DNA of 64,000 bases from an uncultured Dehalococcoidia bacterium. GTDB taxonomy: Bacteria; Chloroflexota; Dehalococcoidia; Lucifugimonadales; UBA3495. How positions within the stretch are numbered: the stretch's first letter is position 1; each line of letters opens with the position of its first letter. The position numbers were made by a program, and so were the translations under genes. The stretch spans positions 3,222,956 through 3,286,955 of the forward strand of contig OY282494.1 in NCBI GenBank assembly GCA_958296385.1, written 5' to 3'. Under the pieces are notes generated by a model. It was given only the letters and a program-made list of their open reading frames with translations. It made no database searches and had not been told where the DNA came from. Positions 38,505-55,063 of the stretch are shown piece by piece.

Positions 38505-39560
38505 CTAGGCGTACAGGTTGTCGTAGATGGTGGATGCGTCGGGCGGCGGGGCGGCGTCGGCGTAGTCGGTGGCGTCGTTCACTTGCTGCTGCGCCTCGGC
38601 CCGGAACTCGTCCACCTGCTCCGGGGTCAGCAGTCCCCGCTCTACCAGCAGCGCCGGGAACGTTGCCACCGGGTCCAGCCGGCGGGCGGCGTCCACGGCG
38701 TCCCGGTCGCGATAGCGGCGGTCGTCGTCGTCGGTGGTGTGGGGCATGAACCGTTCGCACTTCATCTCCACCAGCGACGGGCCGACGCGGCGGGCGTGGT
38801 CAATGCCCTGACGGGCCGCCTCGTAGCAGGCGATGAGGTCCATACCGTCCACCACGAAACCGGGAAAGCCGTAGCTGTCGGCACGGGCCGCAACGTCGCC
38901 AATCGCCATCTGGCTGCTTTGCGGGGTGGAGATGGCGAAGCGGTTGTTCTCGCAGATGAACAGGATGGGCAGTTGGTGGATGGACGCAAAGTTCATCGCT
39001 TCGTGGGTTTCGCCCTGGCTGGAGGCGCCATCGCCGAACCAGCAGAGGGTAACCGTGTCGTCGCCCAGCATCTTGCAGCCCAGGGCGTAGCCCACGCTTT
39101 GCGTCAGGCTGGCGGCCACCACGTTGGATATTTGGATGATTTTGCGAGGCAGGTCGGCGCCCTGGAGGGGGAACTGGCGCGCGCCCGAATAGGGTTCGCC
39201 GTCCTTGCCCATAAACGACAGCATCACCTGGCGGGGCGTCAGGCCGGCGGCCATCTTGACGGCCAAATCCCGGTAGTAAGGGAACAGGAAACAGTCGCCG
39301 TCTTTGCGGGCCGCCAGCAGCGAGCCCAGCTGCGCCGCCTCGTGGCCCTGCGCGGAGGCGGCGATGGGCACCTTGCCCTGCCGGTTCATCATCCAGATGC
39401 GCTCGTCCACGGTGCGCACCATAATCAGCTGGCGGCACACCTCCACCAGGTCGGCGGCGGCCAGGCCGTCGGGCAGCGGCGGCGCGTCCGGGCTAGTCTG
39501 GGCAATAGCAATAGCGCTATCGGCGTCGGTTGCGTTGGCCTGCGTCATCAGACTGGTCAT
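38505..39560 (-). CDS. 2-oxoacid dehydrogenase E1 alpha subunit (ThDP-dependent)
   Basis: ...YRDLAVKMAAG... and ...CWFGDGASSQGETHEAMNFA... (ThDP motif GDG...N) support the call. Confidence 0.9.
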   Translation of the reverse strand: MTSLMTQANATDADSAIAIAQTSPDAPPLPDGLAAADLVEVCRQLIMVRTVDERIWMMNRQGKVPIAASAQGHEAAQLGSLLAARKDGDCFLFPYYRDLAVKMAAGLTPRQVMLSFMGKDGEPYSGARQFPLQGADLPRKIIQISNVVAASLTQSVGYALGCKMLGDDTVTLCWFGDGASSQGETHEAMNFASIHQLPILFICENNRFAISTPQSSQMAIGDVAARADSYGFPGFVVDGMDLIACYEAARQGIDHARRVGPSLVEMKCERFMPHTTDDDDRRYRDRDAVDAARRLDPVATFPALLVERGLLTPEQVDEFRAEAQQQVNDATDYADAAPPPDASTIYDNLYA

Positions 39561-39654
39561 CTCCTGGTAGCCGTAAGCGTAAGCGTAGCGGACGATAGGA
39601 TAGCGGCCGCTGGTCTCAATGATAGACTAACCGGGATAGGGCTGGCAAACGGCG

Positions 39655-41772
39655 CTATTGCGGCGTGCCCGCTGGCCCGGGCGTAACGAGGATGTCCCCC
39701 TCCCAGATGTACTTATAGCCGCCAGCCGCCGGTATGAACTGGCCGGTTCTGATTTCAGCGATGTCGTATTCCGGTAGCGGAACTATGACCCAGCAGGTGT
39801 TAGCCAGTCTGATGAGACTATCCTCGTAGAAGTCTCGGTTGTCATAACCGTGCTGCTTGCGGTCGTCGGGCAGGTCGTTCACGTCAACCGGGTGCAAGTG
39901 GAGGAAAAACGCGGCGTCAAGGTCGCTCGGGCCGCACTGTTCCTTTACGTAGATCAGCCGGTTTTCCACAAGGTGGACGTCGAATTCGGAACGAATTGCC
40001 GGCGTGTTGCCCCTGGTCAACTCCGCATTGTAATCGCTGGACACTATTAGGTCGCGTCCGGCAAAAGCGGAGCTGACCCACTCATGGTCGTCGGACTCAA
40101 AGGGCATCCAGAGGTTGGGCCCCATCGGCATGGCATATTCACCTTGCTCAAACGCCTGCTCCACAGTGGCTGCCGGGGGGTGGACGTCGATATTAACGCC
40201 ACGCTCCTCCGGGTAGCCGGGGGGCGGAGAACGGTCGTGGGCCATTTGGCGCTCTCGGTTGGGGCGTGTAACCGGATTGCGCGCTATCGTCGCGTCGGTC
40301 AGACCCATATAGTCAATGACGGTCAGTTCCGGGAGGTGATAGGAATGGATGCCAATGCTGCCACGAAGCATTACTGCATCGCCGGGAATTATCCCCCGTT
40401 GCATATTCTCGTAGGGCTGCCACCTCGCAATCATGAGGTCAGCGAATTCACGATGCTCAACGAACCGATCACCTACGTGCTGCTGGACAAGAGTAGCGCG
40501 CAAGTCGTTGGCGGTTGCCGCCAGCGCGGGCATCCCCGGCGCGAACAGCAGCCAGCCGGCGTTATCATCATCAAGCTCGATATGAATTCGCTTGATGCGT
40601 TCGTCAATCTTGGCCCCCTCAAACAGCAGCGCCGCCTGCATTGCGCTGGAGTAGAAAATGACCGGGACGAACAGCAGCAGCGCCCACGCCGGCGGGCTTG
40701 ACAGTATCCTGACTTGTGCGATTGGCCGGATACGCTGCGCCCTATCCGCAACCCAGCCGCCCAGATGCACAATCCCCACTGCCGCCGGCAGCGCCAGCAG
40801 CGGCCAGTAGAAATCCAGCGGGCGGTACTCAAAGTGGTCGCCGCCAATCCGCATTACGTAGGCCATGTGCACTACGATTATCAGCAGCACCAGGGTGAAA
40901 GCGCCATCCCGGTATTGCCGCCAGCGTTCCCGCAGGGCGACAAATGCCAGCGGCAGCAGCAGGTACAGCCCGGTTTCAATGGCCGCCGCACAGAGGTACC
41001 GGAACCCTGATTCGTACCAGGGGCGGACGTGCTTGGCGTAGTAGGTGTTGGGCAGCCATTCGCCGTAGTAGGCGTAGCGGAACAGGAAATGCGCCTCTAT
41101 CAGGATTGCAAAGGGCACAATCAGGAAAGTCAGCTCCCGCCATTCCAGCCGGGGCCGACCGGCGTCAATCATCCGCTGGACGATGAACCAGCCGAAGCAC
41201 AGAACCGCAATCAGCGGGCCCTCCGGGCGGGTCAGGGACGCTGCGGCCAGGCTCAGCGATGCGGTCAGCAAGCCCCACTGGTTGTTGCGGTACAGGGCCA
41301 GACAGATTACCGCTACGACTATAAAGAAGGTGAACTGCCGGGTTTCCAGCCCGCCGCCGGACGTCCAGACGGCAAAAGTTGCGCTGCTGCACACCAGCCC
41401 CAACGCCAGCCACGCCGTCAATCCCCGGCAGCGCAGCGATGGCGTGCGCCACGCCCACCACAGCAGCGCGGCGATGGTTGCCGCCGTGTAAATTACCGAC
41501 AGCCACGGGGCGGCGTGTTCGGGCTTGATGCCCAAGATGCCCCAAACGGCGGCCAGTTCCAGTACCCACAGGAAGTTGGAGTAGCCCTCAACCCGCTCGC
41601 CAACGTTGAAAACCAGGCCGTGCCCCTCCAGCAGATTGCGAACGTAGCGAAAGCTGATAAAGGCGTCGTCGGTAAGAAACCACGACACCGATGCCAGCCA
41701 ACCCAGCAGCGCCAGCCAGGGCAGAATGGCAACGATGAAATAGATGCGGTGGGCTGGAAGTAAAGTTCGCAC
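39655..41772 (-). CDS. GT-C-like integral membrane glycosyltransferase candidate, copy 4 (intact full-length form of pseudogene copy 1)
   Basis: The GTG start at 41772 is chosen by alignment with copy 2. The N-terminal ~330 aa is near-identical to copy 2, and the C-terminal module matches copy 1 codon for codon (...DDRKQHGYDNRDFYEDSLIRLANTCW...). Confidence 0.8.
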   Translation of the reverse strand: MRTLLPAHRIYFIVAILPWLALLGWLASVSWFLTDDAFISFRYVRNLLEGHGLVFNVGERVEGYSNFLWVLELAAVWGILGIKPEHAAPWLSVIYTAATIAALLWWAWRTPSLRCRGLTAWLALGLVCSSATFAVWTSGGGLETRQFTFFIVVAVICLALYRNNQWGLLTASLSLAAASLTRPEGPLIAVLCFGWFIVQRMIDAGRPRLEWRELTFLIVPFAILIEAHFLFRYAYYGEWLPNTYYAKHVRPWYESGFRYLCAAAIETGLYLLLPLAFVALRERWRQYRDGAFTLVLLIIVVHMAYVMRIGGDHFEYRPLDFYWPLLALPAAVGIVHLGGWVADRAQRIRPIAQVRILSSPPAWALLLFVPVIFYSSAMQAALLFEGAKIDERIKRIHIELDDDNAGWLLFAPGMPALAATANDLRATLVQQHVGDRFVEHREFADLMIARWQPYENMQRGIIPGDAVMLRGSIGIHSYHLPELTVIDYMGLTDATIARNPVTRPNRERQMAHDRSPPPGYPEERGVNIDVHPPAATVEQAFEQGEYAMPMGPNLWMPFESDDHEWVSSAFAGRDLIVSSDYNAELTRGNTPAIRSEFDVHLVENRLIYVKEQCGPSDLDAAFFLHLHPVDVNDLPDDRKQHGYDNRDFYEDSLIRLANTCWVIVPLPEYDIAEIRTGQFIPAAGGYKYIWEGDILVTPGPAGTPQ

Positions 41773-41901
41773 GGCGCAGCGGTTTGGGGAATTGCGGGGG
41801 ACTATTCTACCACTGCCATTGCGAGGGTACGGTCTTAACGGCAGTGCAGCTTCCCGCGGCATCCGGGCCGGATTGTAGCACAGGGCCGCCCGCCGCCGGG
41901 C

Positions 41902-43929
41902 TTACTCCGCAACGACGTATTCCCCCTCCCACAAGCGGCCCTGGCCCTCTGTCCATTGGCCCGTGCGGATGGCCGCCAGGTCATAATCCGGCAGTACTCG
42001 GATAGCAAAGCAGGTTGCCCCCAATTGGTAGCCGGACTTGGCAAAGTCGAAATCGCGGTTGTCAAAACCGTACTGCTTACGCTGGTTGGGCAGGTCTGCC
42101 GGGTCCACCGGCTCCAGATGCAAAAAGAACTTCGCGGCAGTGTCCTCCGGCCGGCATTGCTCTTTCCGGTAGATAAGCGCGTTCTCGTGGAGATAGACGT
42201 CATAATCGGAACGAATTACAGGCTCGCCGGACGCTATGGCCGCGTATTCCGCACTCAGCGCCCCGGCGGAGTCGTAATCCCGGTTAACTTTGAATATCAC
42301 GCCGTCGCTCAGCTGCGCCACCGGCTCCAGCCTCAGGGTACGCAGGATGCCGAGATTATAATAGTGGTGAGCCACGTAGCGGTCCATATACGGGTATAGC
42401 CAGACTACGTATGTCCCATCCGCTGCGCGTTCAATCTGCCGTCTCGCCTCAGCCCAATTTCTTTCCATAGGGTGAGCATTGTTATGGCCAGCGTGGTGGT
42501 ACAGGCTGATTGCTGAGTTGGAGAGTACCCGTTCCGTCGCCAGGCGCTCGCTGACGTACTGCATAACTGCCGAGTCAATCCACCCCCGGCCAGTCAGTCC
42601 CAAATGGACGAAGCCGGCGTTCACCCGCCAGATTTCACGCGCGTTCATCGCTGCGTTGACCGAGAGCCAAAGGCAAAGAACCAGCAAAATGATCAGGGCT
42701 AACAAACTCGTCCTTTTTACCCTCCCCCATACCAACATTCTAATTACCGGCACACCGGCAATGCTTCCCATCAAATTTCGCGCGCGCGCATAGCTCAACA
42801 AACGGTCGGTCACCAGCAGCGCGGCGAACAGGAGCGGAATGTACACGGGAGTCAGAAATCGGGGCTTTACCCCGTGCCAGGTGTTCCCCAGCATTATCGC
42901 GACAACCAGCAAAGCCAGGTGCGCCAGCACAAATACGCCGAATATGACAAAGGGGCGCCATTCCCCCCAATCATTCCCGAGCCCGGTAGAATGACCCAGA
43001 GCGCGGCGGCGGGCGCGCCGGGCAACGTAACCAACCGCTGCCGCCAGCGCGAGCAAGGTTACTCCGCCCAGGGCCACGGTGAAATAATAACCGTCGCTGC
43101 TTACCGGCCAGTTCCAGATTAGCGACTTTCCCAGAATGCCACAAATACCGCTCAGAATCTTTATCAAAGAGTAATCAACAGGCTGCTGATTCCCGGTAAT
43201 TTCTCCGATGCGCAGATAATTCCGCAGCAGCCATAGTCCAATGGGGGCCAGCGCAATCAGCGAATATATCGCGATGCGCCGCAACTTGGTTGACAGCGGG
43301 ATACCGTGCTGGAAAAGCAGCAGCAAGCCTACGGTGAACGCTAACGATATGCCCACGTAGTGCGTCAACCAGGCCAGGGCAGTGAAAACCGCCGCCCAAA
43401 GCAACGCGGAACGCTTGCCGCTGCCCAGGAACGCGTCGGTCTGGATCAGGGCCAGTATGGTGAACAGAATAAATGCCGGGCGGGATAACCCCCAGAACGC
43501 AATTTCGGCCAGCGGCAGCGCAAGCGCAACCGCCAGACAGCCCCACAGAACCAGAAAGCGGGATTCCAGGCACCGGTGCAGCCACCGCCCGGCGATGAAA
43601 ACGGTCACCCCGAAAATGACGGCGTTGACCGGGCCGGAAACGTCGCGCGGGTCGAACACGCCAAGACTGGCCGCAGCCAGAATCATCGGATAGAGCGGGG
43701 CCCAATTTGTATAGAATGCCCCATTCCACTGAATAAAGCCGTTCCCCGCCAGCAGGTTGCGGGCTACGGAGATGTAATTTATGGGATCCCACGATAGAGC
43801 CACCCCATAAGTAACCTCCCGCGCCAGCACGAGGGCCGTACCCAGCACGGCAATGCCGGCCAGCAGCAGCGTAAAGCGGCCGGGCCGGAGACGGGACAGC
43901 GGGCGGCGGGAGAATAGGGGCGGGTTCAT
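41902..43929 (-). CDS. GT39/ArnT-like polytopic membrane protein (copy 5) with the shared C-terminal module
   Basis: The start is set at Met22 (43929). ...DPINYISVARNLLAGNGFIQWNGAFYTNWAPLYPMILA... is a PMT_2-like loop. The C-terminus is IRSDYDVYLHENALIYRKEQCRPEDTAAKFFLHLEPVDPADLPNQRKQYGFDNRDFDF...AIRTGQW. Confidence 0.7.
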   Translation of the reverse strand: MNPPLFSRRPLSRLRPGRFTLLLAGIAVLGTALVLAREVTYGVALSWDPINYISVARNLLAGNGFIQWNGAFYTNWAPLYPMILAAASLGVFDPRDVSGPVNAVIFGVTVFIAGRWLHRCLESRFLVLWGCLAVALALPLAEIAFWGLSRPAFILFTILALIQTDAFLGSGKRSALLWAAVFTALAWLTHYVGISLAFTVGLLLLFQHGIPLSTKLRRIAIYSLIALAPIGLWLLRNYLRIGEITGNQQPVDYSLIKILSGICGILGKSLIWNWPVSSDGYYFTVALGGVTLLALAAAVGYVARRARRRALGHSTGLGNDWGEWRPFVIFGVFVLAHLALLVVAIMLGNTWHGVKPRFLTPVYIPLLFAALLVTDRLLSYARARNLMGSIAGVPVIRMLVWGRVKRTSLLALIILLVLCLWLSVNAAMNAREIWRVNAGFVHLGLTGRGWIDSAVMQYVSERLATERVLSNSAISLYHHAGHNNAHPMERNWAEARRQIERAADGTYVVWLYPYMDRYVAHHYYNLGILRTLRLEPVAQLSDGVIFKVNRDYDSAGALSAEYAAIASGEPVIRSDYDVYLHENALIYRKEQCRPEDTAAKFFLHLEPVDPADLPNQRKQYGFDNRDFDFAKSGYQLGATCFAIRVLPDYDLAAIRTGQWTEGQGRLWEGEYVVAE

Positions 43930-44017
43930 TTCGGTCCGGTTATGCGGCGGCGGGCGGTAGGCTATAATAGCCCTTGTTATCAGCCCATTCAAGGTGCTGT
44001 GCGTTCAAGGAGTCGTT

Positions 44018-45202
44018 ATGCCTATTTCGCGGTATGTTAGCCGGTCGATGGAGGAGGGGGGGTGGATTCGCCGGATGTTTGAGGTGGGGATTGCGCTTAA
44101 GGCGCAGTATGGCGATGAGAATGTGTTTGACTTGTCGCTGGGCAATCCGATTATGGAGCCGCCAGCGGCGTTTCACGCGGAGCTGCGGCGCATCGCCGGC
44201 AATCCGGCGCCGGGGATGCACCGCTATATGCCCAACGCCGGCTATCCGGAGACCCGGCAGGCGGTGGCCGATACGCTGTCGGGCGAAACCGGCCTGCCTT
44301 TTGGCGCGGGGGACATCGTGATGACTTGCGGCGCGGCGGGGGCGGCCAACGTGGTGCTGCGCGCGATTCTGAACCCCGGCGACGAGGTTATCATCCTGGC
44401 GCCGTTCTTTGGGGAGTACGTTTATTACATCCAGAATCACAACGGGACGCCGGTTATCGTTCCAACCAACGCGGAGTTCGGGCTGGACCTGGCGGCGATT
44501 GACGCGGCGATTACGGCGCGCACCCGGGGCATCATCATCAACTCGCCCAACAACCCGTCCGGCGTGGTGTATCCCGACGCGGACATCCGGGCGCTGGGCG
44601 ACTTGCTGGGGCGCGCTGAGGCCCGGTACGGCTCGGAGATTTTTATTATCAGCGACGAACCGTATCGCCGCATCATCTACGATGGGCTGGAGTATCCGCA
44701 GGTGTTTCCGCATTACGAACACACCATCGTGGTCAATTCCCACGCCAAAGATTTGGGGCTGCCGGGCGAGCGCATCGGACATATCGCGGTGCATCCGGGC
44801 TATGCGGGCAAGGCGGAGCTGGTGGACGGGCTGGTGTTTTGCAACCGGGTGCTGGGGTTTGTCAATGCGCCGGCGCTGATGCAGCACGTGGTGCGCGCGG
44901 TGCAGGATGCGTCGGTGGACGTGGGCGAATACCAGCGCAAACGGGATTATCTGTACGACCGGCTGACGGGGATGGGCTATTCGGCGGTCAAGCCGCAGGG
45001 GGCGTTCTACCTGTTCCCCCGCTCGCCGCTGGACGACGACGAGGCGTTTGTGGCGGCGTTGCAGGAGTACAACGTGCTGGTGGTGCCAGGCAAAGGCTTC
45101 GGCGCCCCCGGCCATTTCCGCATCTCGTACTGCCTGGAGGATCGGGTTCTGGAGGGGGCGATGGACGGGTTTGCGCGGGCGGCGGAGCAGTATCTGCGCT
45201 AA
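44018..45202 (+). CDS. class I/II PLP-dependent aminotransferase
   Basis: AGGAG precedes ATG 44018. ...FDLSLGNP...YMPNAGYPETR...ISDEPYRRIIYDG...NSHAKDLGLPGERIG... shows SxAK with the PLP lysine. Confidence 0.9.
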   Translation: MPISRYVSRSMEEGGWIRRMFEVGIALKAQYGDENVFDLSLGNPIMEPPAAFHAELRRIAGNPAPGMHRYMPNAGYPETRQAVADTLSGETGLPFGAGDIVMTCGAAGAANVVLRAILNPGDEVIILAPFFGEYVYYIQNHNGTPVIVPTNAEFGLDLAAIDAAITARTRGIIINSPNNPSGVVYPDADIRALGDLLGRAEARYGSEIFIISDEPYRRIIYDGLEYPQVFPHYEHTIVVNSHAKDLGLPGERIGHIAVHPGYAGKAELVDGLVFCNRVLGFVNAPALMQHVVRAVQDASVDVGEYQRKRDYLYDRLTGMGYSAVKPQGAFYLFPRSPLDDDEAFVAALQEYNVLVVPGKGFGAPGHFRISYCLEDRVLEGAMDGFARAAEQYLR

Positions 45203-45783
45203 CTGTCCGGCAGAGCTGCGCCGCGAATCCGGTCAAAAATGGGGACCAAGTCTATGGCAATGCCCGGAATGGCTTGCGATGTTAATATCTCGTTGGACTG
45301 ATACACCCGCTCCAGTGTCAATGCTGCGCCGTCCCTGACGTATTTTGACACCGTTGCGGCGCGCAAGTCGGCAACCCACATTTCACGGACGCCGTTGCGG
45401 GCGTACACGGGCAGTTTTACCGTCAAGTCGCGCTGCCGGGTGGATTCGGACAGCACTTCTATTACTATGTCCGGCGCGCCGGTGATGCCGTGTGCCTCAA
45501 TGATATGCCGCCGGTTGTTGGAGATGAACAGCAAGTCGGGCTGAAAAGTGTTTTGTTCGTCCATGGCCACGTCGAGGGGGGCAACGAAAATTGCGCCGGT
45601 ATCGGGGCCGATTCGCGAACGCAGGGCGAAGTACAGTTCTCCGATAAACTCCTGGTGCGGAACACTGGCGCCGGCCATTTTAATAAGTTCTCCCTCAATG
45701 AGCTGGTAGCGCACGCCCCGATGCGAGGGGGGCGTCAGCGCTATGTAGTCGGCCCCGGTTAGTTTGGTGCGGGGTTGGATCAT
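45199..45783 (-). CDS. Uma2-family (DUF820) endonuclease-like protein
   Basis: ...YQLIEGELIKM...FQPDLLFISN...APDIVIEVLSESTRQRDLTVKLPVYARNGVREMWV is the PD-(D/E)xK-like core. Confidence 0.85.
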   Translation of the reverse strand: MIQPRTKLTGADYIALTPPSHRGVRYQLIEGELIKMAGASVPHQEFIGELYFALRSRIGPDTGAIFVAPLDVAMDEQNTFQPDLLFISNNRRHIIEAHGITGAPDIVIEVLSESTRQRDLTVKLPVYARNGVREMWVADLRAATVSKYVRDGAALTLERVYQSNEILTSQAIPGIAIDLVPIFDRIRGAALPDS

Positions 45784-45796
45784 CTTGTTGCCTCCG

Positions 45797-46387
45797 CTAA
45801 CTATTGGGCAGAGCTGCGCCGCGAATCCGGTCAAAAATTGGGGCCAAGTCTATGGCAATGTCCGGAATGGCTTGCGACGTTAATATCTCGTTGGACTGAT
45901 ACACCTGCTCCAGTGTTAACGCCGCGCCGTCCCTGACGTATTTTGATACTGTTGCGACGTGCAAGTCGGCAACCCACATTTCGCGGACGCCATTGCGGGC
46001 ATACACGGGCAGTTTTACCGTCAAGTCGCGCTGACAGGTGGATTCGGACAGCACTTCTATTACTACGTCCGGGGCGCCGGTGATGCCGTGTCCGTCAAGA
46101 ATATGCCGCCGGTCGTTGGCGATAAACAGCAAGTCGGGTTGAAAAGTGTTGTGCTCGTCTATGGCCACGTCGAGGGTAAGGGAAAATTCGCCGTTATACC
46201 CGGTTCCCAAGCGCAGCGCGAAGAGCAGTTCTCCGATAAACGCCTGGTGCGAATAACTGGTGCGGGCCATTTGAATCAGCTCACCCTCAATGAGCTGGTA
46301 GCGCACGCCCTGATACCAGGGGGGAGTCATCGCCATATAGTCGGCCCCGGTTAGTTTGGTGCGGGGTTTTGCCTGGGGTTGCGTCAT
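45797..46387 (-). CDS. Uma2-family (DUF820) endonuclease-like protein, tandem paralog
   Basis: The motifs match the 45199 gene. The 3' halves are about 90% identical at DNA level by eye. Confidence 0.85.
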   Translation of the reverse strand: MTQPQAKPRTKLTGADYMAMTPPWYQGVRYQLIEGELIQMARTSYSHQAFIGELLFALRLGTGYNGEFSLTLDVAIDEHNTFQPDLLFIANDRRHILDGHGITGAPDVVIEVLSESTCQRDLTVKLPVYARNGVREMWVADLHVATVSKYVRDGAALTLEQVYQSNEILTSQAIPDIAIDLAPIFDRIRGAALPNS

Positions 46388-47762: not shown

Positions 47763-48054
47763 ATAGCCCAAAACCTGCACCAACGCCGGCAGCCATTGCG
47801 ACGCGTAGTGCGGGGAATCAAACAAGCGCTAGGCAACCGCCGTTGACGCCAACACCGTCCGGCAGTACCATAATCAGCACATCGCCCCTTGAGAGTACGC
47901 TACGCTCCCCGACATCATGAGCGCGCCGGAATCCTGGGGCATATTCGTGCCCGCAGTGGATTGGTTTGGTAGCCCACAACCTCCACCAGCGACGACGCCC
48001 CTTGCGCCGCGCGGTGAGGAGAATTAAGCGGACGTTTGGCAGGCGTGGTTGACG
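47763..48054 (+). repeat. S-D repeat array, locus A (about 1.4 units of ~206 bp), homologous to the array at 53551-54205 on the other strand
   Basis: S_A1 is at 47763-47846, D_A1 at 47843-47968, and S_A2 at 47969-48052, followed by a TTGACG restart at 48049. The D block contains TTGACG(47843-47848)-17-TACCAT. The array aligns over its whole length with the reverse complement of 53551-53906. Confidence 0.8.
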
Positions 48055-48069
48055 CTACCATCAAGGACG

Positions 48070-49347
48070 TTAGTAGGGCCTTCCGTCCAAAATGACTTCA
48101 AGTACCAGATAAGTCACACCGTCTATGTCAATATAGGTATTTCCGTCCCTTATGTACCCGGTATGCGGACAGTTTTCAGTCCACGAGTACCATATGCTTC
48201 CATCGTCGCGACTTTTCTTGGTTACCCGGTCAACGCAGGGTTTCCCCTCATGTGTCTTATACCAATATCCACCGTCTCCTTCGTCTCCTTCCCATTTCAG
48301 CTGGGCAAGATATGACCCGTCGTTATAGTGAGCGGTAGGCGCAGTGGGCGTAGGTGTAGGTGCAGGGGTGGGCGTAGGTGCATATACGTTTCGGCCTTGC
48401 TTGAGGGAATCAAACCGGCTGAAAATCTCGGACATGGCCAGCGCGTAGCCGATATTGTCGCTTTTTGCCTGCTTGTCCTTAAGCGTGTTCATCCCGATAA
48501 TTCGCCCTCTGGCGTTCATCAGAGGGCCGCCGGAATTACCCTCGTTAATCGCAGTGTCCGTCTTAATAAAGATTACGCCGTCCAAGTCAACGCTGGGAGA
48601 TGATACAACGCCGGTAGTTATTGAGAATTCACCATAGCCGGAGAGGCCGACAGGATAGCCTACCGCAATGGTTGCCTCTCCGTATTCTGCCGCGTAATCG
48701 TCAGCATACACGTCACGACTCCAACGCTGTAGATAATATATGCCGTCAGACATAAAATCGGTGGGACGGGCGTCCAGCAGCGCAACATCGGCCAGTTCGT
48801 CTCTGCCAAGCACTTTCGCACGTACCATAGGGGTATCCGTGTACCAATAAACATTCACGTAGGAGGCGTCTCCTACAACGTGAGCATTGGTAATGACATA
48901 GTAATCATCGTTGGTAGCCCGATGCCGGCCAACGGATGGGTCGACAATGAAAAACCCGGTTCCGAATGACCCAGGTACCCTTATTTCCAAGGTACGGTCT
49001 GCTAGCCTATTGCTCCAGTCGCGGATAGTAGGCGTCGGTGTAGGTGTGCGCGTGGGCCGGCGGGTAGGTGTCGGCCGGCGGGTTGGCGTCGCTGTGGGAT
49101 AAGGGGTTGCGGTTGGCTGCGGCGTGGCTGTCGGCCGTGGCGTGGCCGTCGGCCGTGGTGTAGCCGTGGGCCGTGGCGTGGTCGTGGGCGCATCCAACGT
49201 TGCCGACATTGCGCCAATCGTTGCCGGCAAGTCGGGCGTTGCCGTTACCTCTACGAATACTACGGTCGGTTCGGACGGCGCGGCGCAGGCCAGCAAAGTT
49301 ATTGCGACTATCGCTATCACAATTGCGGTTGTAAGTTTCGTGGCCAT
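48070..49347 (-). CDS. trypsin-like (S1/HtrA-like) serine protease with signal anchor, Pro/Thr repeat linker and extra C-terminal domain
   Basis: ATG 49347 follows GGGAG. The signal is MATKLTTAIVIAIVAITLLACAAP, followed by (PRPTAT)n. The protease core includes ...TNAHVV...TDTAINEGNSGGPL. The AT-richer C-terminal ~90 aa is not recognised. Confidence 0.8.
   Translation of the reverse strand: MATKLTTAIVIAIVAITLLACAAPSEPTVVFVEVTATPDLPATIGAMSATLDAPTTTPRPTATPRPTATPRPTATPQPTATPYPTATPTRRPTPTRRPTRTPTPTPTIRDWSNRLADRTLEIRVPGSFGTGFFIVDPSVGRHRATNDDYYVITNAHVVGDASYVNVYWYTDTPMVRAKVLGRDELADVALLDARPTDFMSDGIYYLQRWSRDVYADDYAAEYGEATIAVGYPVGLSGYGEFSITTGVVSSPSVDLDGVIFIKTDTAINEGNSGGPLMNARGRIIGMNTLKDKQAKSDNIGYALAMSEIFSRFDSLKQGRNVYAPTPTPAPTPTPTAPTAHYNDGSYLAQLKWEGDEGDGGYWYKTHEGKPCVDRVTKKSRDDGSIWYSWTENCPHTGYIRDGNTYIDIDGVTYLVLEVILDGRPY
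49130..49190 (-). repeat. 18-nt tandem repeat (about 3.4 copies) encoding PRPTAT units inside the protease gene
   Basis: Consecutive 18-mers are GTCGGCCGTGGCGTGGCC, GTCGGCCGTGGTGTAGCC and GTGGGCCGTGGCGTGGTC. Confidence 0.7.
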
Positions 49348-49535
49348 AATTACACTCCCGGCCAATATACTGCTGCGGCATGGCAAAAATGCCGGCTACC
49401 GCAATATCCAGGCCGGGATTGCGGCTGGTGTCCGGCGTATTACCACCCCTACTCCCCGCGTCGTCGCTGATTTTTTCGGATTGGGCGGGGGATTTTGACG
49501 GGGGGAGGGCGTATCGTTTGGGGTCAACGTTCACT

Positions 49536-50572: not shown

Positions 50573-50578
50573 TATAAT
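50573..50578 (+). promoter_or_regulatory. -10 box TATAAT upstream of the NYN gene
   Basis: A perfect TATAAT overlaps the ATG of the track ORF at 50577. This argues for the downstream TTG 50625 start, which has GGGAGGTGG 5 nt upstream. Confidence 0.35.
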
Positions 50579-50624
50579 GCAATCCGTTTATCCGTTACGT
50601 AGGCTATATCGGGAGGTGGCTAAT

Positions 50625-51488
50625 TTGGAAGAGAATAATAACGGCGTACTAATTGCCATTGATTGGGAGAACATCCGGCGGGGGGCGCAGCTGTACAATC
50701 AGAACGTTACGCCGGCCAGCGTGTGCGACGCGATGCGCAACGTGGCGGGGGTGTTCGGCCCGTTTCTGGGGGGCAAGGCCTTTGGCGACTGGAGCCTGCG
50801 CCTGGACGACGGGGCGGCTTTCAATCAGGCGGGGATACAGCCCTATCAGGCGCCGCGCACGATGGCGGGCAAAGACCGCAGCGACCCGGCCATCCTGCTG
50901 GAGGTGTACGACTGGGTGCGCGACCGGGATGACTGCGGTGTGGTCATCCTGGGTTCCGGCGATTCGGATTACCAGGTGCTGGTGGACAAGGCCCGGGAAC
51001 GGGGGCGGCGGGTCATCCTGTGCGCTTTCAGCCAGTCGGTGGCCCGGGATATGCTGGCCATTGCGCCCCTCTTTCCGCTGGAGGCGGAGCTGGGCTTTCA
51101 GATGTCGGAGCATGGCGACATTGCGCTGGTGGAGCTGGGGCCGAACAACATTGACGATGCGATGCAGATTTTCGTCAAGGGGGTGGACAGCCTGGAACGA
51201 CGGCTGAGCTTTGTGGGCTACTCCAAGCTGTACTCCGAATGGATGCTGGACTGGGGGTTGGCCAACACCGAGTACGAGTGCCGGGGGCTGCTGGACCAGT
51301 GGCTGGACGAGAACGTCGTGGAGCGCCATCACGTCGAGAACTACAACAACCCGCAATTCCCCACGGCGGCGGTGCGGCTGGTGCGCTCCAACGAAATCGT
51401 GCGGGAGTTTCTGGGACTGAACCGCCCGGCGGTCAACAATCCGGTGCTGCCGGCGCAATCGGCGGAGGCCGTGCGAGCCGAGGCGTAA
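50625..51488 (+). CDS. NYN-domain (LabA-like) protein with C-terminal extension
   Basis: ...VLIAIDWENI...AFGDW...RSDPAILLEVYDW...VVILGSGDSDYQVLVDKARERGRRVIL... shows the NYN/PIN-like acidic residues. Confidence 0.7.
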   Translation: MEENNNGVLIAIDWENIRRGAQLYNQNVTPASVCDAMRNVAGVFGPFLGGKAFGDWSLRLDDGAAFNQAGIQPYQAPRTMAGKDRSDPAILLEVYDWVRDRDDCGVVILGSGDSDYQVLVDKARERGRRVILCAFSQSVARDMLAIAPLFPLEAELGFQMSEHGDIALVELGPNNIDDAMQIFVKGVDSLERRLSFVGYSKLYSEWMLDWGLANTEYECRGLLDQWLDENVVERHHVENYNNPQFPTAAVRLVRSNEIVREFLGLNRPAVNNPVLPAQSAEAVRAEA

Positions 51489-52848: not shown

Positions 52849-53550
52849 CTAGAACTGCTGTGTTGGGTTACTTCTGCCCGGTCGTGGGAAGGGACAGTAT
52901 ATTTGGTCAATATGCTCGAACAAATCGTGGGAAACCCGCTGCCAGAGTGGGTCGAGAACAATCCGCACGCCTTCGCGCCGGGCTAACTTTGCCGCCGGCA
53001 CGAAGTCGCTGTCTCCGGTGACCAGAACGATGGTATCCGCCTGTTTTTTAAGCGTGATAGTGGTGATATCGATTCCAATTCGCATATCAACCGCTTTCTG
53101 CCGGAAACCCGGCACAAAATCCGCGTCGTTCAAGTCAGTGACGGCCCGCCTCCCTGACAACAGGTCGTTCTGAGCCCTTTCGGTAATTATCCATTGTCGT
53201 TCCCTGTGAACCTCCCCTAATCGCAGGGCAAGGTTGGGACGACCGCGCAAGCGTTCGAACAGCCCCAAACGGAAAGACGCAACATCGGACTTTGCGTAAT
53301 CAATAGTCCGCTTACTGACCGGGTAGAGCCCTCTCTTATCGTAGGGGTACGCATCGTAAAAAAAGCAACGATACAAGAGGGAATAAGGGTTATCAGCACA
53401 CTCAACAGTATTAATTTGCTGGAGGTGGCCATCAATCAGCCGACCAATTTCCGTATCGGCGCGTTCGGGGTTTGACAAGACGCTCCGGTCAGTGAAACTC
53501 GGCAGACGTCTGAGGAAAAATCCGCCGTCAATCAATATTGCAACACGCAT
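52849..53550 (-). CDS. NYN-domain (LabA/DUF88-like) protein on an AT-richer segment
   Basis: Supporting sequence: MRVAILIDGGFFLRR...FFYDAYPY...QKAVDMRIGIDI...IVLVTGDSDFVPAAKLARREGVRIVL. Confidence 0.75.
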   Translation of the reverse strand: MRVAILIDGGFFLRRLPSFTDRSVLSNPERADTEIGRLIDGHLQQINTVECADNPYSLLYRCFFYDAYPYDKRGLYPVSKRTIDYAKSDVASFRLGLFERLRGRPNLALRLGEVHRERQWIITERAQNDLLSGRRAVTDLNDADFVPGFRQKAVDMRIGIDITTITLKKQADTIVLVTGDSDFVPAAKLARREGVRIVLDPLWQRVSHDLFEHIDQIYCPFPRPGRSNPTQQF

Positions 53551-53906
53551 AACCAATCCACTACAAACATAAATATGCCCCAGGATTTCGGCCCGCTCAT
53601 GATGTCGGGGAGCGTAGCGTACTATCAAGGGGCGATGTAGCAACTATGTTACTGCCTGACGGCGGTGGTGTCAACCCATGCGCCTCAGCGCTGTTTGATG
53701 CCCCACACTACGCGGCGCAAGGGCCGCCGGCGTTGGTGCAGGTTTTAGGCTATCGGGGGAGCATCAAGCCAATCTACTGCGGGCACGAATATGCCCCAGG
53801 ATTTCGGCCCGCTCATGATGTCGGGGAGCGTAGCGTACTATCAAGGGGCGATGTAGCAACTATGTTACTGCCTGACGGCGGTGGTGTCAACCCCTGCGCC
53901 TCAGCG
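53551..53906 (-). repeat. S-D repeat array, locus B (D2-S1-D1 plus the tail of S0), 216-bp period, directly upstream of the NYN gene
   Basis: Plus-strand copies start at 53553 and 53769 and are near-identical over about 120 bp. Each D block carries TTGACA-17-TAACAT on the minus strand (53674-53669/53651-53646 and 53890-53885/53867-53862). Confidence 0.85.
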
Positions 53907-54132
53907 GGTAGCGTTCCGTTTTAGGTGGTTTAATCAGCCCGCCGCCGGCCATTCTGCCATTCCCCCTAATGTCATTCTGAGCGCAGCGAAGAATCTCGAC
54001 AGCGTAGCGACGGCGTTGCCCCCAAAGTGTGCCCTACGTCATCGAGATTCTTCGCTGCGCTCAGAATGACATTGGGGGGAGAGGGTCGGAATGAGATTAG
54101 GGAAACTAAACCACCTAAAACGGAACGCTACC
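53907..54132. mobile_element. 226-bp near-perfect palindromic MITE-like element with 9-bp target-site duplication
   Basis: The ends are GGTAGCGTTCCGTTTTAGGTGGTTTA... and ...TAAACCACCTAAAACGGAACGCTACC. The inner arms are the 38-mer 53962-53999 and its complement 54042-54079, with 1 mismatch. The element is flanked by GCCTCAGCG (53898-53906) and GCCTCAACG (54133-54141). Confidence 0.6.
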
Positions 54133-55063
54133 GCCTCAACGCCCGCTTAATCCCCTGCACCACGCGTCGCAACGGCCGCCGTCGCTGGTGTAGGTTTTGG
54201 GCTATTAGGGGGGCCAGGGTTGGGTTGGCGGCTATTAGGGGGGCTACCCATTTGCGCAGTTCGGCTATGGTGGGGGGGTGGGTGTCCCAGGTGGGGATTA
54301 GGGAGTCCAGGGGGTGCCAGGCGCGGTGGTTGGGGAGGCGGGTTATTATGGCGCCGCCGGCTTCTTGCACGGCCAGTGCGCCGCCCAGCATATCCCACAT
54401 CCGGGGGGCGCCGATGATGGCGAACTGCATTGCGCCCATCGCCGTTAGCGCCAGCTCGTAGGCGATGCTGCCGGTTACGCGGGGCTGGCCCAGCGGCTGT
54501 CCTTTGAGTCCTTTGCCGATGCGGGTTGAGGCGCCGAAAGAACCGGGCAGTCCGATTAGACGGTCGCCGCGCGGTTTGTCGGTTTGATATACGGATATTG
54601 GCGCGCCGTCCCGGCAGGCGCCGCCGTTGGCCCGGCTGTGGATTACTACCCCGCCGTCGGAGGCCGGCCAGGGGATGTACACGGCGCCGGCCAGCGGGCG
54701 GCCGCGATACAGCACTCCGATGGACGAGGCATAGACGGGCAGGCCGTTCATAAAGTTGGTGGTGCCGTCCAGCGGGTCCAGCACCCAGAGATAATCGGGG
54801 GCGGGGGTGTCGCCGTCGGCGCTGGCGTCGTCCTCCTCGCCGAGGATGCCATGGGCGGGAAAGCGCTCCGCAATGCGGGATTCCAGGTACGCCTGCGTTT
54901 CCTTGTCGGCGTTGGTTACCGGGTCTTGCCGGTTGCGGTCTTTGTACTCAACGCTGATGGCCTGCTCAAAGTGGCCGGTCAGGATGGCGCCGGCGCCGCG
55001 CGCAAAATCGGCGGCGGCCGATTCAATCTCAAGGGCAATGGCAGCGGCGGGCAAAGTCATCAT
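54128..55063 (-). CDS. inositol monophosphatase-family protein (SuhB-like)
   Basis: ...ILGEE... and ...WVLDPLDGTTNF... are the metal motifs, and ...IAANP... fits the C-terminal helix. The stop codon TAG (54130-54128) lies inside the terminal nucleotides of the palindromic element. Confidence 0.85.
   Translation of the reverse strand: MMTLPAAAIALEIESAAADFARGAGAILTGHFEQAISVEYKDRNRQDPVTNADKETQAYLESRIAERFPAHGILGEEDDASADGDTPAPDYLWVLDPLDGTTNFMNGLPVYASSIGVLYRGRPLAGAVYIPWPASDGGVVIHSRANGGACRDGAPISVYQTDKPRGDRLIGLPGSFGASTRIGKGLKGQPLGQPRVTGSIAYELALTAMGAMQFAIIGAPRMWDMLGGALAVQEAGGAIITRLPNHRAWHPLDSLIPTWDTHPPTIAELRKWVAPLIAANPTLAPLIAQNLHQRRRPLRRVVQGIKRALRR

Follow-up and report, generated by a model that had tools for sequence, protein, structure and literature searches.

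We here describe a stretch of 64,000 nt (the window) from an uncultured, SAR202-like Dehalococcoidia bacterium (GenBank assembly GCA_958296385.1, contig OY282494.1, positions 3,222,956 to 3,286,955), in which the tail of an IMPase-family gene and the leader of the NYN-domain gene that follows it are reiterated in tandem. Read on the minus strand, the order is IMPase-S0-[226-nt MITE]-D1-S1-D2-ATG(NYN), where S denotes the IMPase tail, D the whole promoter and 5' leader of the NYN gene, and MITE a miniature inverted-repeat transposable element. The unit, present twice in tandem, is ~216 nt long; it starts at IMPase codon ~283 and reaches just into the NYN open reading frame (ORF). Comparison across genomes indicates that D is a promoter followed by a ~65-nt structured 5' RNA, which accompanies this NYN family nearly everywhere it occurs. 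The duplication seems ordinary; the RNA-nuclease module that it duplicates is widespread and essentially uncharacterised, and it invites a defence or toxin-antitoxin-like hypothesis, or an autoregulatory one.

Direct reading and a repeat search both return the layout that a first, sequence-only reading of this DNA had proposed. The D blocks form a direct repeat of 138 nt (53553-53690 and 53769-53906), 94% identical and spaced by 216 nt. From the last S codons to GGGGCATATT, D1 and D2 show 1 difference in about 135 positions, and up to GGGGCAUAUU they are identical over about 117 nt; their final ~24 nt hold at least 8 differences. Both carry TTGACA-17-TAACAT (53890-53862 in D1, 53674-53646 in D2), and four promoter-like sites were found against 0.7 expected. 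D2 has an AU-rich tail reaching the NYN gene, and its end, GGATTGGTT, directly abuts the ATG at 53550. The description of D as a block of ~135 nt that starts at these hexamers and runs into the start codon stands in all essentials. With the MITE and one copy of its target site removed, S0 is 84 nt (27 codons) long, not the 81 nt first given, and ends in ...RRG-TGA. This ancestral stop lies inside TTGAC, as had also been noticed. S1 keeps the same layout and is decayed as the earlier reading had it, with a TAA at codon 3 and a 1-nt deletion; the two tails differ by 13 substitutions and one indel (~15-20% divergence). Tandem Repeats Finder did not report the array when run on the window, because the MITE interrupts it.

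The evidence for an RNA in D comes from 80 loci with homologues of the window NYN protein (37-79% identity), which represent about ten phyla (Chloroflexota, Alpha-, Beta- and Gammaproteobacteria, Verrucomicrobiota, Firmicutes, Actinobacteria, Cyanobacteria, Acidobacteria, Bdellovibrionota and others). A profile of D matches directly upstream of the NYN gene at many of these loci, and the alignment shows compensatory changes. A covariance model, R1, made from 14 proteobacterial and verrucomicrobial seeds with a hand-drawn structure, finds the motif at 73 of the 80 loci, where it ends a median of 27 nt (range 2-63) before the NYN start. Run on the 64-kb window with filters off, R1 returns exactly three copies, at 40-46 bits, in D1, D2 and a further copy, Da, in a second array at 47.8 kb; all three align full-length with every pair standard. 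In the R1 alignment, itself a product of fitting to the model, standard pairs make up 98.3% of pair cells; sliding the 3' partners by 1-3 columns lowers this to 31-57%. Changes on both sides are seen in 13 of the 14 pairs (196 cells), no shuffle reaches any of the observed measures, and both the slide control and the raw sequences back the fold. These controls leave little doubt that the predicted structured RNA in D is real. It is visible from comparison alone, given that a single-sequence fold of D2 gave no signal (z = -0.37). Covariance had been named in the sequence-only reading as a check on D, and the covariation across the NYN-family leaders is strong. That reading's second idea, of a portable promoter or leader module, proved right for D, which travels with the NYN family across phyla, phages and plasmids. 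A protein-coding role for D was considered and rejected: in three frames read by eye, no start or consistent product is kept across D1, D2 and Da, and the helix substitutions are compensatory.

The predicted RNA consists of a helix (P1), an AGUA/GA(A) internal loop and a second helix (P2). P1, GCCCC/GGGGC, is extended by a small internal loop and 2 further base pairs that covary. In the 5' strand of the main internal loop, N-A-G-U-A-N, the four named bases are conserved at 96% (A), 96% (G), 100% (U) and 96% (A); in the 3' strand, C-G-A-N, the G is present in 92% and the A in 96%, and the third base is A in 58%, giving GA(A/C). The loop is sarcin-ricin-like, of the bulged-G type. P2 is a variable hairpin, at times with an extra inserted stem, whose loop keeps AU(C); the window copies have a P2 of 8-9 bp with a bulged A and a GC-rich P1. 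Sigma-70-like -35 and -10 hexamers lie just upstream of the motif, and the predicted transcription start should be the conserved CAUC, 3-5 nt before P1. Downstream of P1 the sequence is U-rich, with at least 5 T in the next 9 nt in 75 of 77 motif matches, and in most lineages P1 plus U-run resembles an intrinsic terminator. In the window clade the tail after P1 is CAUAUUU, in which a simple terminator scan finds no terminator. R1 gave no match on Escherichia phage ev099 or on Campylobacter pTet. In ev099 (L170 2380-2500) the NYN homologue is preceded by a promoter, a different long hairpin and a U-run, without the AGUA/GAA loop. In pTet-M129 (L172 2375-2440) an AT-rich UUUUGGCAGUAACC...GGCAAACCCUUAAC upstream of NYN is, by eye, a degenerate look-alike that the model does not detect.

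The NYN protein of the window matches Pfam PF01936 at 43.3 bits (cut-off 24.2), a match that spans residues 146-198 only, and phrog_5783 (E 3e-69), which is annotated as 'unknown function'. Residues D8, D66, D155, D161, D180 and D182 are invariant in 78 homologues and all present in the window copy. On the Pfam match and these acidic residues, the product is a predicted nuclease. PADLOC returned only weak NYN and HEC-09 matches for it, and a sequence search of the PDB gave no match. Homologues number 6320 at E<=1e-10, with names limited to 'NYN domain-containing' or 'LabA/DUF88'. They occur in 65 phage records, 48 of which are Stx2a-converting phages, and in 165 plasmid records, mainly conjugative Campylobacter pTet-type and Xanthomonas plasmids. 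In the lambdoid phage ev099 the homologue lies between a cI-like repressor and N, the position of rexAB, and in the P2-like phiE202 it adjoins a toxin-antitoxin pair and an integrase. The NYN family is thus typical accessory cargo, and R1 matches both phiE202 and a Xanthomonas plasmid. The picture is of a ~65-nt covarying RNA that seems tied to a single, functionally uncharacterised NYN family across phyla, temperate phages and conjugative plasmids. A literature search on NYN with RNA motif, sarcin-ricin, anti-phage or Cpp15 returned nothing on an RNA-NYN pairing, which appears to be unstudied so far. At a Herbaspirillum sp. locus (L111 2562-2766), the opposite strand just upstream of the NYN module holds a c4-a1b1 target, an isrK-like match and a C4 antisense RNA whose score of 57.5 bits exceeds its threshold, an arrangement that suggests a P1/P7-type prophage immunity region.

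A single catalogued relative of the D RNA was found. Rfam 15 at gathering thresholds returned nothing relevant over the whole window, and RF03535 ('TEG147', gathering threshold 56.1 bits) gave no match to 53300-54300 even at E<=10. An Rfam scan of ten NYN loci produced one relevant sub-threshold match, of RF03535 to the Collinsella tanakaei copy (L154), which is full-length, scores 40.3 bits against the 56.1 required, and lies at the same position as the R1 match. The two share the architecture AcCCAUGAGAGUAG...CGAAAUCAUGGgUUUUU, and the RF03535 consensus and structure agree with R1 in P1, the AGUA/GAA internal loop, the P2 hairpin and the 3' U-run, the last being weak in the window clade. A pattern derived from the RF03535 consensus led to four Staphylococcus loci, all of which R1 detects (25-33 bits, E 5e-8 to 2e-5). 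S. borealis has an intact NYN homologue, 37% identical to the window protein, which the motif precedes by ~30 nt. S. intermedius has a frameshifted homologue, and in S. schweitzeri and S. simulans (L169 1263-1420; L167 5135-5260) a decayed N-terminal NYN remnant (KVAILIYGEF...) is all that follows the motif. From this comparison we conclude that the D core is a divergent, distant relative of the RF03535 family; the window copies are not filed as members, because they fall below the family threshold. Hence the earlier statement that no described element has this structure is right in part, the exception being the RNA core.

RF03535 is a small Staphylococcus family of unknown role, produced, according to a passage in PMC7779021, in a student course, and typed by Rfam as Cis-reg. 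Published passages place Teg147 among the bona fide small RNAs of S. aureus HG003 (386294-386353, 60 nt, with a GC content unusually high for the genome; PMC5826253) and in a genomic island (PMC3053349), and a further passage reports that JAR3D scores the RF03535 internal loop as a strong 7x6 sarcin-ricin motif (PMC13085918). In the published passages that mention Teg147, no link to NYN is made. Like the window RNA, RF03535 has a closing helix, an AGUA/(C)GAA sarcin-ricin-type internal loop, a hairpin and a U-run, and in S. borealis a NYN homologue follows the motif. The window copies differ in their longer P2 with a bulged A, their GC-rich P1 and the CAUAUUU that replaces the U-run; moreover, the RNA of the S. 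aureus lineage is an orphan. S. aureus Teg147 thus looks like an orphan of the RNA-NYN module. The tie to a decayed NYN gene explains this orphan small RNA and makes the hypothesis of a two-component RNA-nuclease module testable in culturable hosts.

The second array (Sa-Da-Sb-Db', 47763-48069) was found by a motif search and then read directly. It lies on the plus strand, in the opposite orientation to the first array, with the ATP-sulfurylase gene start on one side and the stop of a convergent gene for a trypsin-like protease on the other (Table 1). Sa and Sb are both exactly 84 nt long, in frame, and end at the same TGA/TTGAC overlap. A profile search of the units with nhmmer found no copies in the window beyond the two arrays. 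Between Da and D1 the RNA core has 3 differences in 57 positions, compared with 10 in 41 in the promoter and spacer (p=0.013), and the promoter hexamers of Da are kept; the orphan Da therefore looks maintained. The adjoining protease gene (48070-49386, minus strand) encodes a Pro/Thr-rich repeat (TPRPTATPRPTATP...) and has a low-GC 3' half. It gives weak PADLOC matches to the protease part of 'RT-Protease_XI'. The gene is not present between the hydratase and ATP-sulfurylase genes of the related loci L009, L029 and L034, and we regard it as an insertion because that interval lacks it there.

Table 1 Features of the two S-D arrays and their flanking genes (window positions).
Feature	Positions	Strand	Details
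NYN-domain gene, 233 aa	52849..53550	-	Pfam NYN E 6.7e-11; phrog_5783 E 3e-69
D2, NYN promoter (53674-53646) and predicted 5' leader RNA	53551..53674	-	model match 53640-53568, 45.6 bits; P1 3' end 53577
S1, decayed IMPase tail, 83 nt	53671..53753	-	TAA at codon 3, 1-nt deletion; TGA overlaps D2 -35 element
Duplication junction ...GATTGGCT-TG-ATGC-TCCCCCG	53754..53768	-	compared with 53540-53560 and 54206-54225
D1, promoter-like TTGACA-17-TAACAT and full predicted structured RNA	53769..53890	-	model match 53856-53784, 44.0 bits; no NYN gene after it
Displaced last codons of S0 (CGCTGAGGCGCAGGGG), then ancestral stop TGA overlapping TTGACA	53891..53906	-	
MITE, 226 nt	53907..54132		26-nt perfect terminal inverted repeats, internal 47-nt inverted repeat, 9-bp target duplication
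S0, coding tail IAQNLHQRRRPLRRVVQGIKRALRR	54131..54205	-	cut by MITE 2 codons before ancestral stop
IMPase-family gene, 311 aa	54128..55063	-	Pfam Inositol_P E 4e-45, residues 12-269; last ~27 codons are S0
Sa, 84-nt in-frame IMPase-tail copy (IAQNLHQRRQPLRRVVRGIKQALGNRR*)	47763..47846	+	without start codon
Da, third promoter copy (TTGACG-17-TACCAT) and intact predicted structured RNA, orphan	47843..47968	+	model match 47877-47949, 40.4 bits
Sb, 84-nt in-frame IMPase-tail copy (VAHNLHQRRRPLRRAVRRIKRTFGRRG*)	47969..48052	+	
Db', first ~21 nt of a further D copy	48049..48069	+	cut off at protease gene stop

Relatives were sampled as 80 GTDB loci (±6 kb) with IMPase orthologues in related Dehalococcoidia. 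Alignment of the closest orthologues, which are 74-81% identical, extends to query residue 309-311, past the end of the Pfam domain near residue 269, so that these proteins have the basic tail in common, and an S profile matches 50 of the 80 loci, each time at the IMPase 3' end. By this comparison S forms a genuine, conserved C terminus of the IMPase proteins in this clade, and the description of S as the last 27 codons of the gene is upheld. The S profile found no second S copy within ±6 kb of the 80 IMPase genes, so among the genomes compared extra S copies are present in the window genome only. The D profile matches six relatives (L001, L009, L017, L029, L030 and L034), once in each, and there D begins a few bases after the IMPase stop and ends at the start of the NYN orthologue. 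These six share with the window the order IMPase, D, NYN, a convergent PALP enzyme, a second NYN-domain gene, enoyl-CoA hydratase and ATP sulfurylase. Most of the other relatives lack the NYN gene, and in several of them IMPase adjoins PALP with only a terminator hairpin between. This hairpin (GGGGCGAA...CGCCCC), which follows the IMPase stop TAG in L039 (6940-6975) and L010 (6935-6965), is kept in L034 (7760-7800) just after the NYN stop TAG; D plus NYN is therefore a precise indel of ~0.83 kb. The GC content of the window NYN gene is about 51-54%, compared with 63-72% in the flanking core genes.

Some further genes of the window are recorded here. The second NYN-domain gene (50577-51488, plus strand, 303 aa) is unrelated to the first, syntenic in most relatives, and has no RNA motif upstream. 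Two Uma2-family paralogues (PF05685, 'putative restriction endonuclease') are adjacent and overlap on the minus strand (45199-45834 and 45797-46387). Three long ORFs without a Pfam match at E<=1e-3 (38583-39686, plus strand; 39655-41862 and 41902-43992, minus strand; 367, 735 and 696 aa) may be novel genes or shadow ORFs of a high-GC region.

The 226-nt insert is best classed as a MITE on sequence grounds, having inverted repeats, a target duplication, many copies, and relatives with a transposase-like ORF. Its 9-bp target duplication, CG(T/C)TGAGGC, contains one mismatch, and it supplies the present IMPase stop codon, a TAG (54130-54128) inside the MITE terminal repeat. The terminal repeat occurs at 117 or more places in related Dehalococcoidia genomes, with more than 50 in one genome. 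Autonomous copies of 1.07 kb (for example, L195 1866-2939) carry a Mutator/IS256-like Transposase_mut ORF, a weak match whose 21.2 bits barely exceed the cut-off (21), and are flanked by a target duplication of ~10 bp. In L248, four terminal-repeat matches lie 154 nt apart, a spacing that suggests tandem mini-elements.

The reiteration is, we infer, an ordinary, lineage-specific tandem duplication that has since been copied and, in part, homogenised. At the D1-to-S1 junction the sequence is ...GATTGGCT-TG-ATGC-TCCCCCGATAGCC; it equals D2/NYN through the ATGC of NYN and equals IMPase from (TG)GC-CCCCCTAATAGCC on. The retained ATGC and the 2-nt GC microhomology fit a tandem duplication of the interval from IMPase codon ~283 to nucleotide 4 of NYN. 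The Da-to-Sb junction is the same save for an 11-nt gap and two substitutions, and D1 and Da share a derived GC-rich tail, CGTGCCCGC, compared with TATGTTTGT in D2. Given this common junction and derived tail, the second array is probably a copy of the first, made once the duplication had taken place. The history would then comprise one microhomology-mediated tandem duplication giving S-D-S-D, the inverted copying of this array, or of part of a longer one, to 47.8 kb, the homogenisation of D1 and D2 by gene conversion and, as the last event, the landing of the MITE in S0. Gene conversion or a later re-duplication is indicated by D1 being equal to D2 while S0 and S1 have diverged and the D1/Da promoter and spacer differ at 10 of 41 positions. 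Several other histories were set aside. Purifying selection on the S copies as independent peptides was rejected on the missing start codon of Sa. A dispersed mobile S-D repeat was rejected in that there are no further window copies, none within ±3-6 kb of 160 related loci, and neither terminal repeats nor a target duplication; outside IMPase loci, no S or D was found in 0.94 Mb sampled from related genomes. A D-tail remnant upstream of Sa, as a circular permutation would leave, gave no significant match, and an inversion between the two inverted arrays was discarded, the gene order being the same as in relatives.

Taken as a whole, we consider it probable, though well short of assured, that the locus is a duplicated IMPase tail plus NYN leader in which the RNA serves as a cognate, trans-capable partner of the NYN protein. 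The RNA is read as cognate because of its invariant pairing with the nuclease, its position at the 5' end of the transcript, its loop of a protein-binding type and its terminator-like tail. The lean towards a partner able to act in trans comes from the persistence of orphan RNAs (Da, and Teg147 with a decayed NYN) and from the accessory positions in phages and plasmids. Most transcripts would stop at P1 and the U-run, giving a ~65-nt small RNA, and read-through would give the NYN mRNA. The bulged-G loop could act as a protein-binding platform that keeps NYN under control or lets it regulate its own expression by feedback, with type III toxin-antitoxin-like restraint or an autoregulatory leader as the outcome. 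The orphan copies D1 and Da would raise the RNA dose.

Several observations count against this account. An AlphaFold model of the window NYN protein (pLDDT 90.1) has no Foldseek match in the PDB at E<=1e-3, only generic Rossmann-like folds with a TM of about 0.3, so that the predicted nuclease function rests on the Pfam match and the invariant acidic residues. The CAUAUUU tail of the window clade is a weak terminator. For the history of the array, the identity of D1 and D2 beside an S0/S1 divergence of ~15-20% needs an extra step, either gene conversion or a second duplication. There is also an excess of synonymous changes among the S copies (S0-Sa 10:6, Sa-Sb 10:10, each P=0.002 under neutrality), which a single old duplication with subsequent decay would not predict, and three junctions begin at the same S position, which could hint at a non-random process. 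The synonymous excess is better read as what copies made from the functional tail on separate occasions would carry, and it keeps a history of serial events open; it does not show site-specific recombination.

Site-specific recombination was what the sequence-only reading had proposed, with the S-D repeats as attachment-site (attL/attR-type) scars of serial integration and excision at the IMPase 3' end, each event bringing a replacement tail. Integrative elements do duplicate gene 3' ends as att sites, in tRNA or protein-gene targets, and the window resembles them in that a gene terminus is repeated with its copies in frame. Sa, Sb and the reconstructed S0 are each exactly 84 nt, in frame, with the same TGA and the synonymous excess; the unit boundaries coincide at (C)CT(A/T)ATAGCC; and the NYN module is a precise indel between IMPase stop and terminator hairpin in relatives and mobile at large. 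However, both S-D copies lie upstream of NYN with no S downstream of it, so the repeats do not flank the cargo. The six relatives that have NYN at the same site carry one S-D. The DNA between the supposed att copies would be the 135-nt D only, the junction retains the NYN ATGC and the 2-nt microhomology of a plain duplication, and the ORFs Pfam-scanned between 36.6 and 61.7 kb (not every ORF there) contain no recombinase domain, in keeping with the earlier remark that none was visible. We therefore regard att-site duplication as very unlikely. An artefact of assembly or polishing in a repeat-rich, long-read metagenome is hardly credible: relative to each other the units show 13 substitutions and an indel in S and at least 8 changes in the tail of D, one of them is interrupted by a MITE with its target duplication, and a second, diverged array lies 6 kb away. 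Such an artefact would fit the identity of D1 and D2 over about 117 nt and the lack of an independent copy of the array in genome and metagenome contig collections, where a D-core 22-mer had 0 matches in the former and a 21-mer in the latter had 5 chance matches without S, D or synteny. An exact look-up of the window NYN, IMPase and PALP proteins likewise found none on record.

With regard to function, the RNA might act purely in cis, as an attenuator or leader on the NYN mRNA, for example in negative feedback through bound NYN, with D1 and Da as by-products that have not yet decayed. Its place at the very beginning of the NYN transcript, where it stops 2-63 nt short of the start codon, and the Cis-reg type given by Rfam speak for this, and gene conversion alone can explain why D1 equals D2. 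We nevertheless think it rather unlikely, although worth serious consideration, given that a terminator-like tail right after the motif would make a short RNA the main product and that orphans persist: Da has an intact structure and promoter, and Teg147, in a passage of PMC5826253 a listed small RNA, occurs in Staphylococcus species with a decayed NYN. A metabolite- or ion-sensing riboswitch, with P1 and the U-tail as expression platform, would also account for the strong covariation, the conserved junction and loop nucleotides and the terminator-like P1 plus U-run upstream of an ORF. The core does look like a structured aptamer with covariation; control of several gene families, as a riboswitch would exert, was not seen, and in every context examined the motif is found with the NYN family or its remnants only. 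No alternative antiterminator pairing is seen either, and the conserved loop is a generic protein-binding, bulged-G motif, all of which makes a riboswitch very doubtful.

Among known systems, the proposed pairing of a cognate RNA with the NYN protein is close in organisation to type III toxin-antitoxin systems (ToxIN, CptIN and TenpIN), in which the RNA antitoxin is an array of 34-36-nt repeats. In both, an RNA with its own promoter lies directly upstream of the protein gene on the same strand, and the order of promoter, small structured RNA, terminator-like element (weak in the window clade) and presumed ribonuclease gene recurs, with phages, plasmids and variable islands as carriers. Both probably make their RNA in excess, and in the window the RNA gene is reiterated. 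The differences are that a single ~65-nt RNA unit is present at the 73 loci, that the window repeats are 216-nt units that include coding sequence, and that the protein is NYN/PIN-like (Pfam NYN, phrog_5783), not ToxN, CptN or TenpN. A second comparison concerns the loop. The PIN-domain toxins VapC20 and VapC26 cleave the sarcin-ricin loop of 23S rRNA, and the NYN/PIN-like RNase Regnase-1 cuts its own mRNA at stem-loops. They resemble the window module in pairing a PIN-like nuclease with a sarcin-ricin-type or stem-loop RNA, and Regnase-1 offers a precedent for action on the self-mRNA; the D motif differs in lacking the GAGA tetraloop that VapC20 cuts. We take the sarcin-ricin resemblance as a lead, not a result. 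One extension of it, which we consider improbable, is that TEG147-class RNAs are sarcin-ricin-loop mimics serving as antitoxin or decoy for a NYN ribonuclease that targets bulged-G RNA, such as the 23S sarcin-ricin loop. If so, the module would represent a new and very widespread family of toxin-antitoxin or anti-phage systems built from RNA and protein, whose thousands of homologues include those of conjugative plasmids, P2-like variable loci and the immunity regions of prophages, and the three RNAs per nuclease seen here would be a dosage adaptation, like the ToxI repeat arrays.

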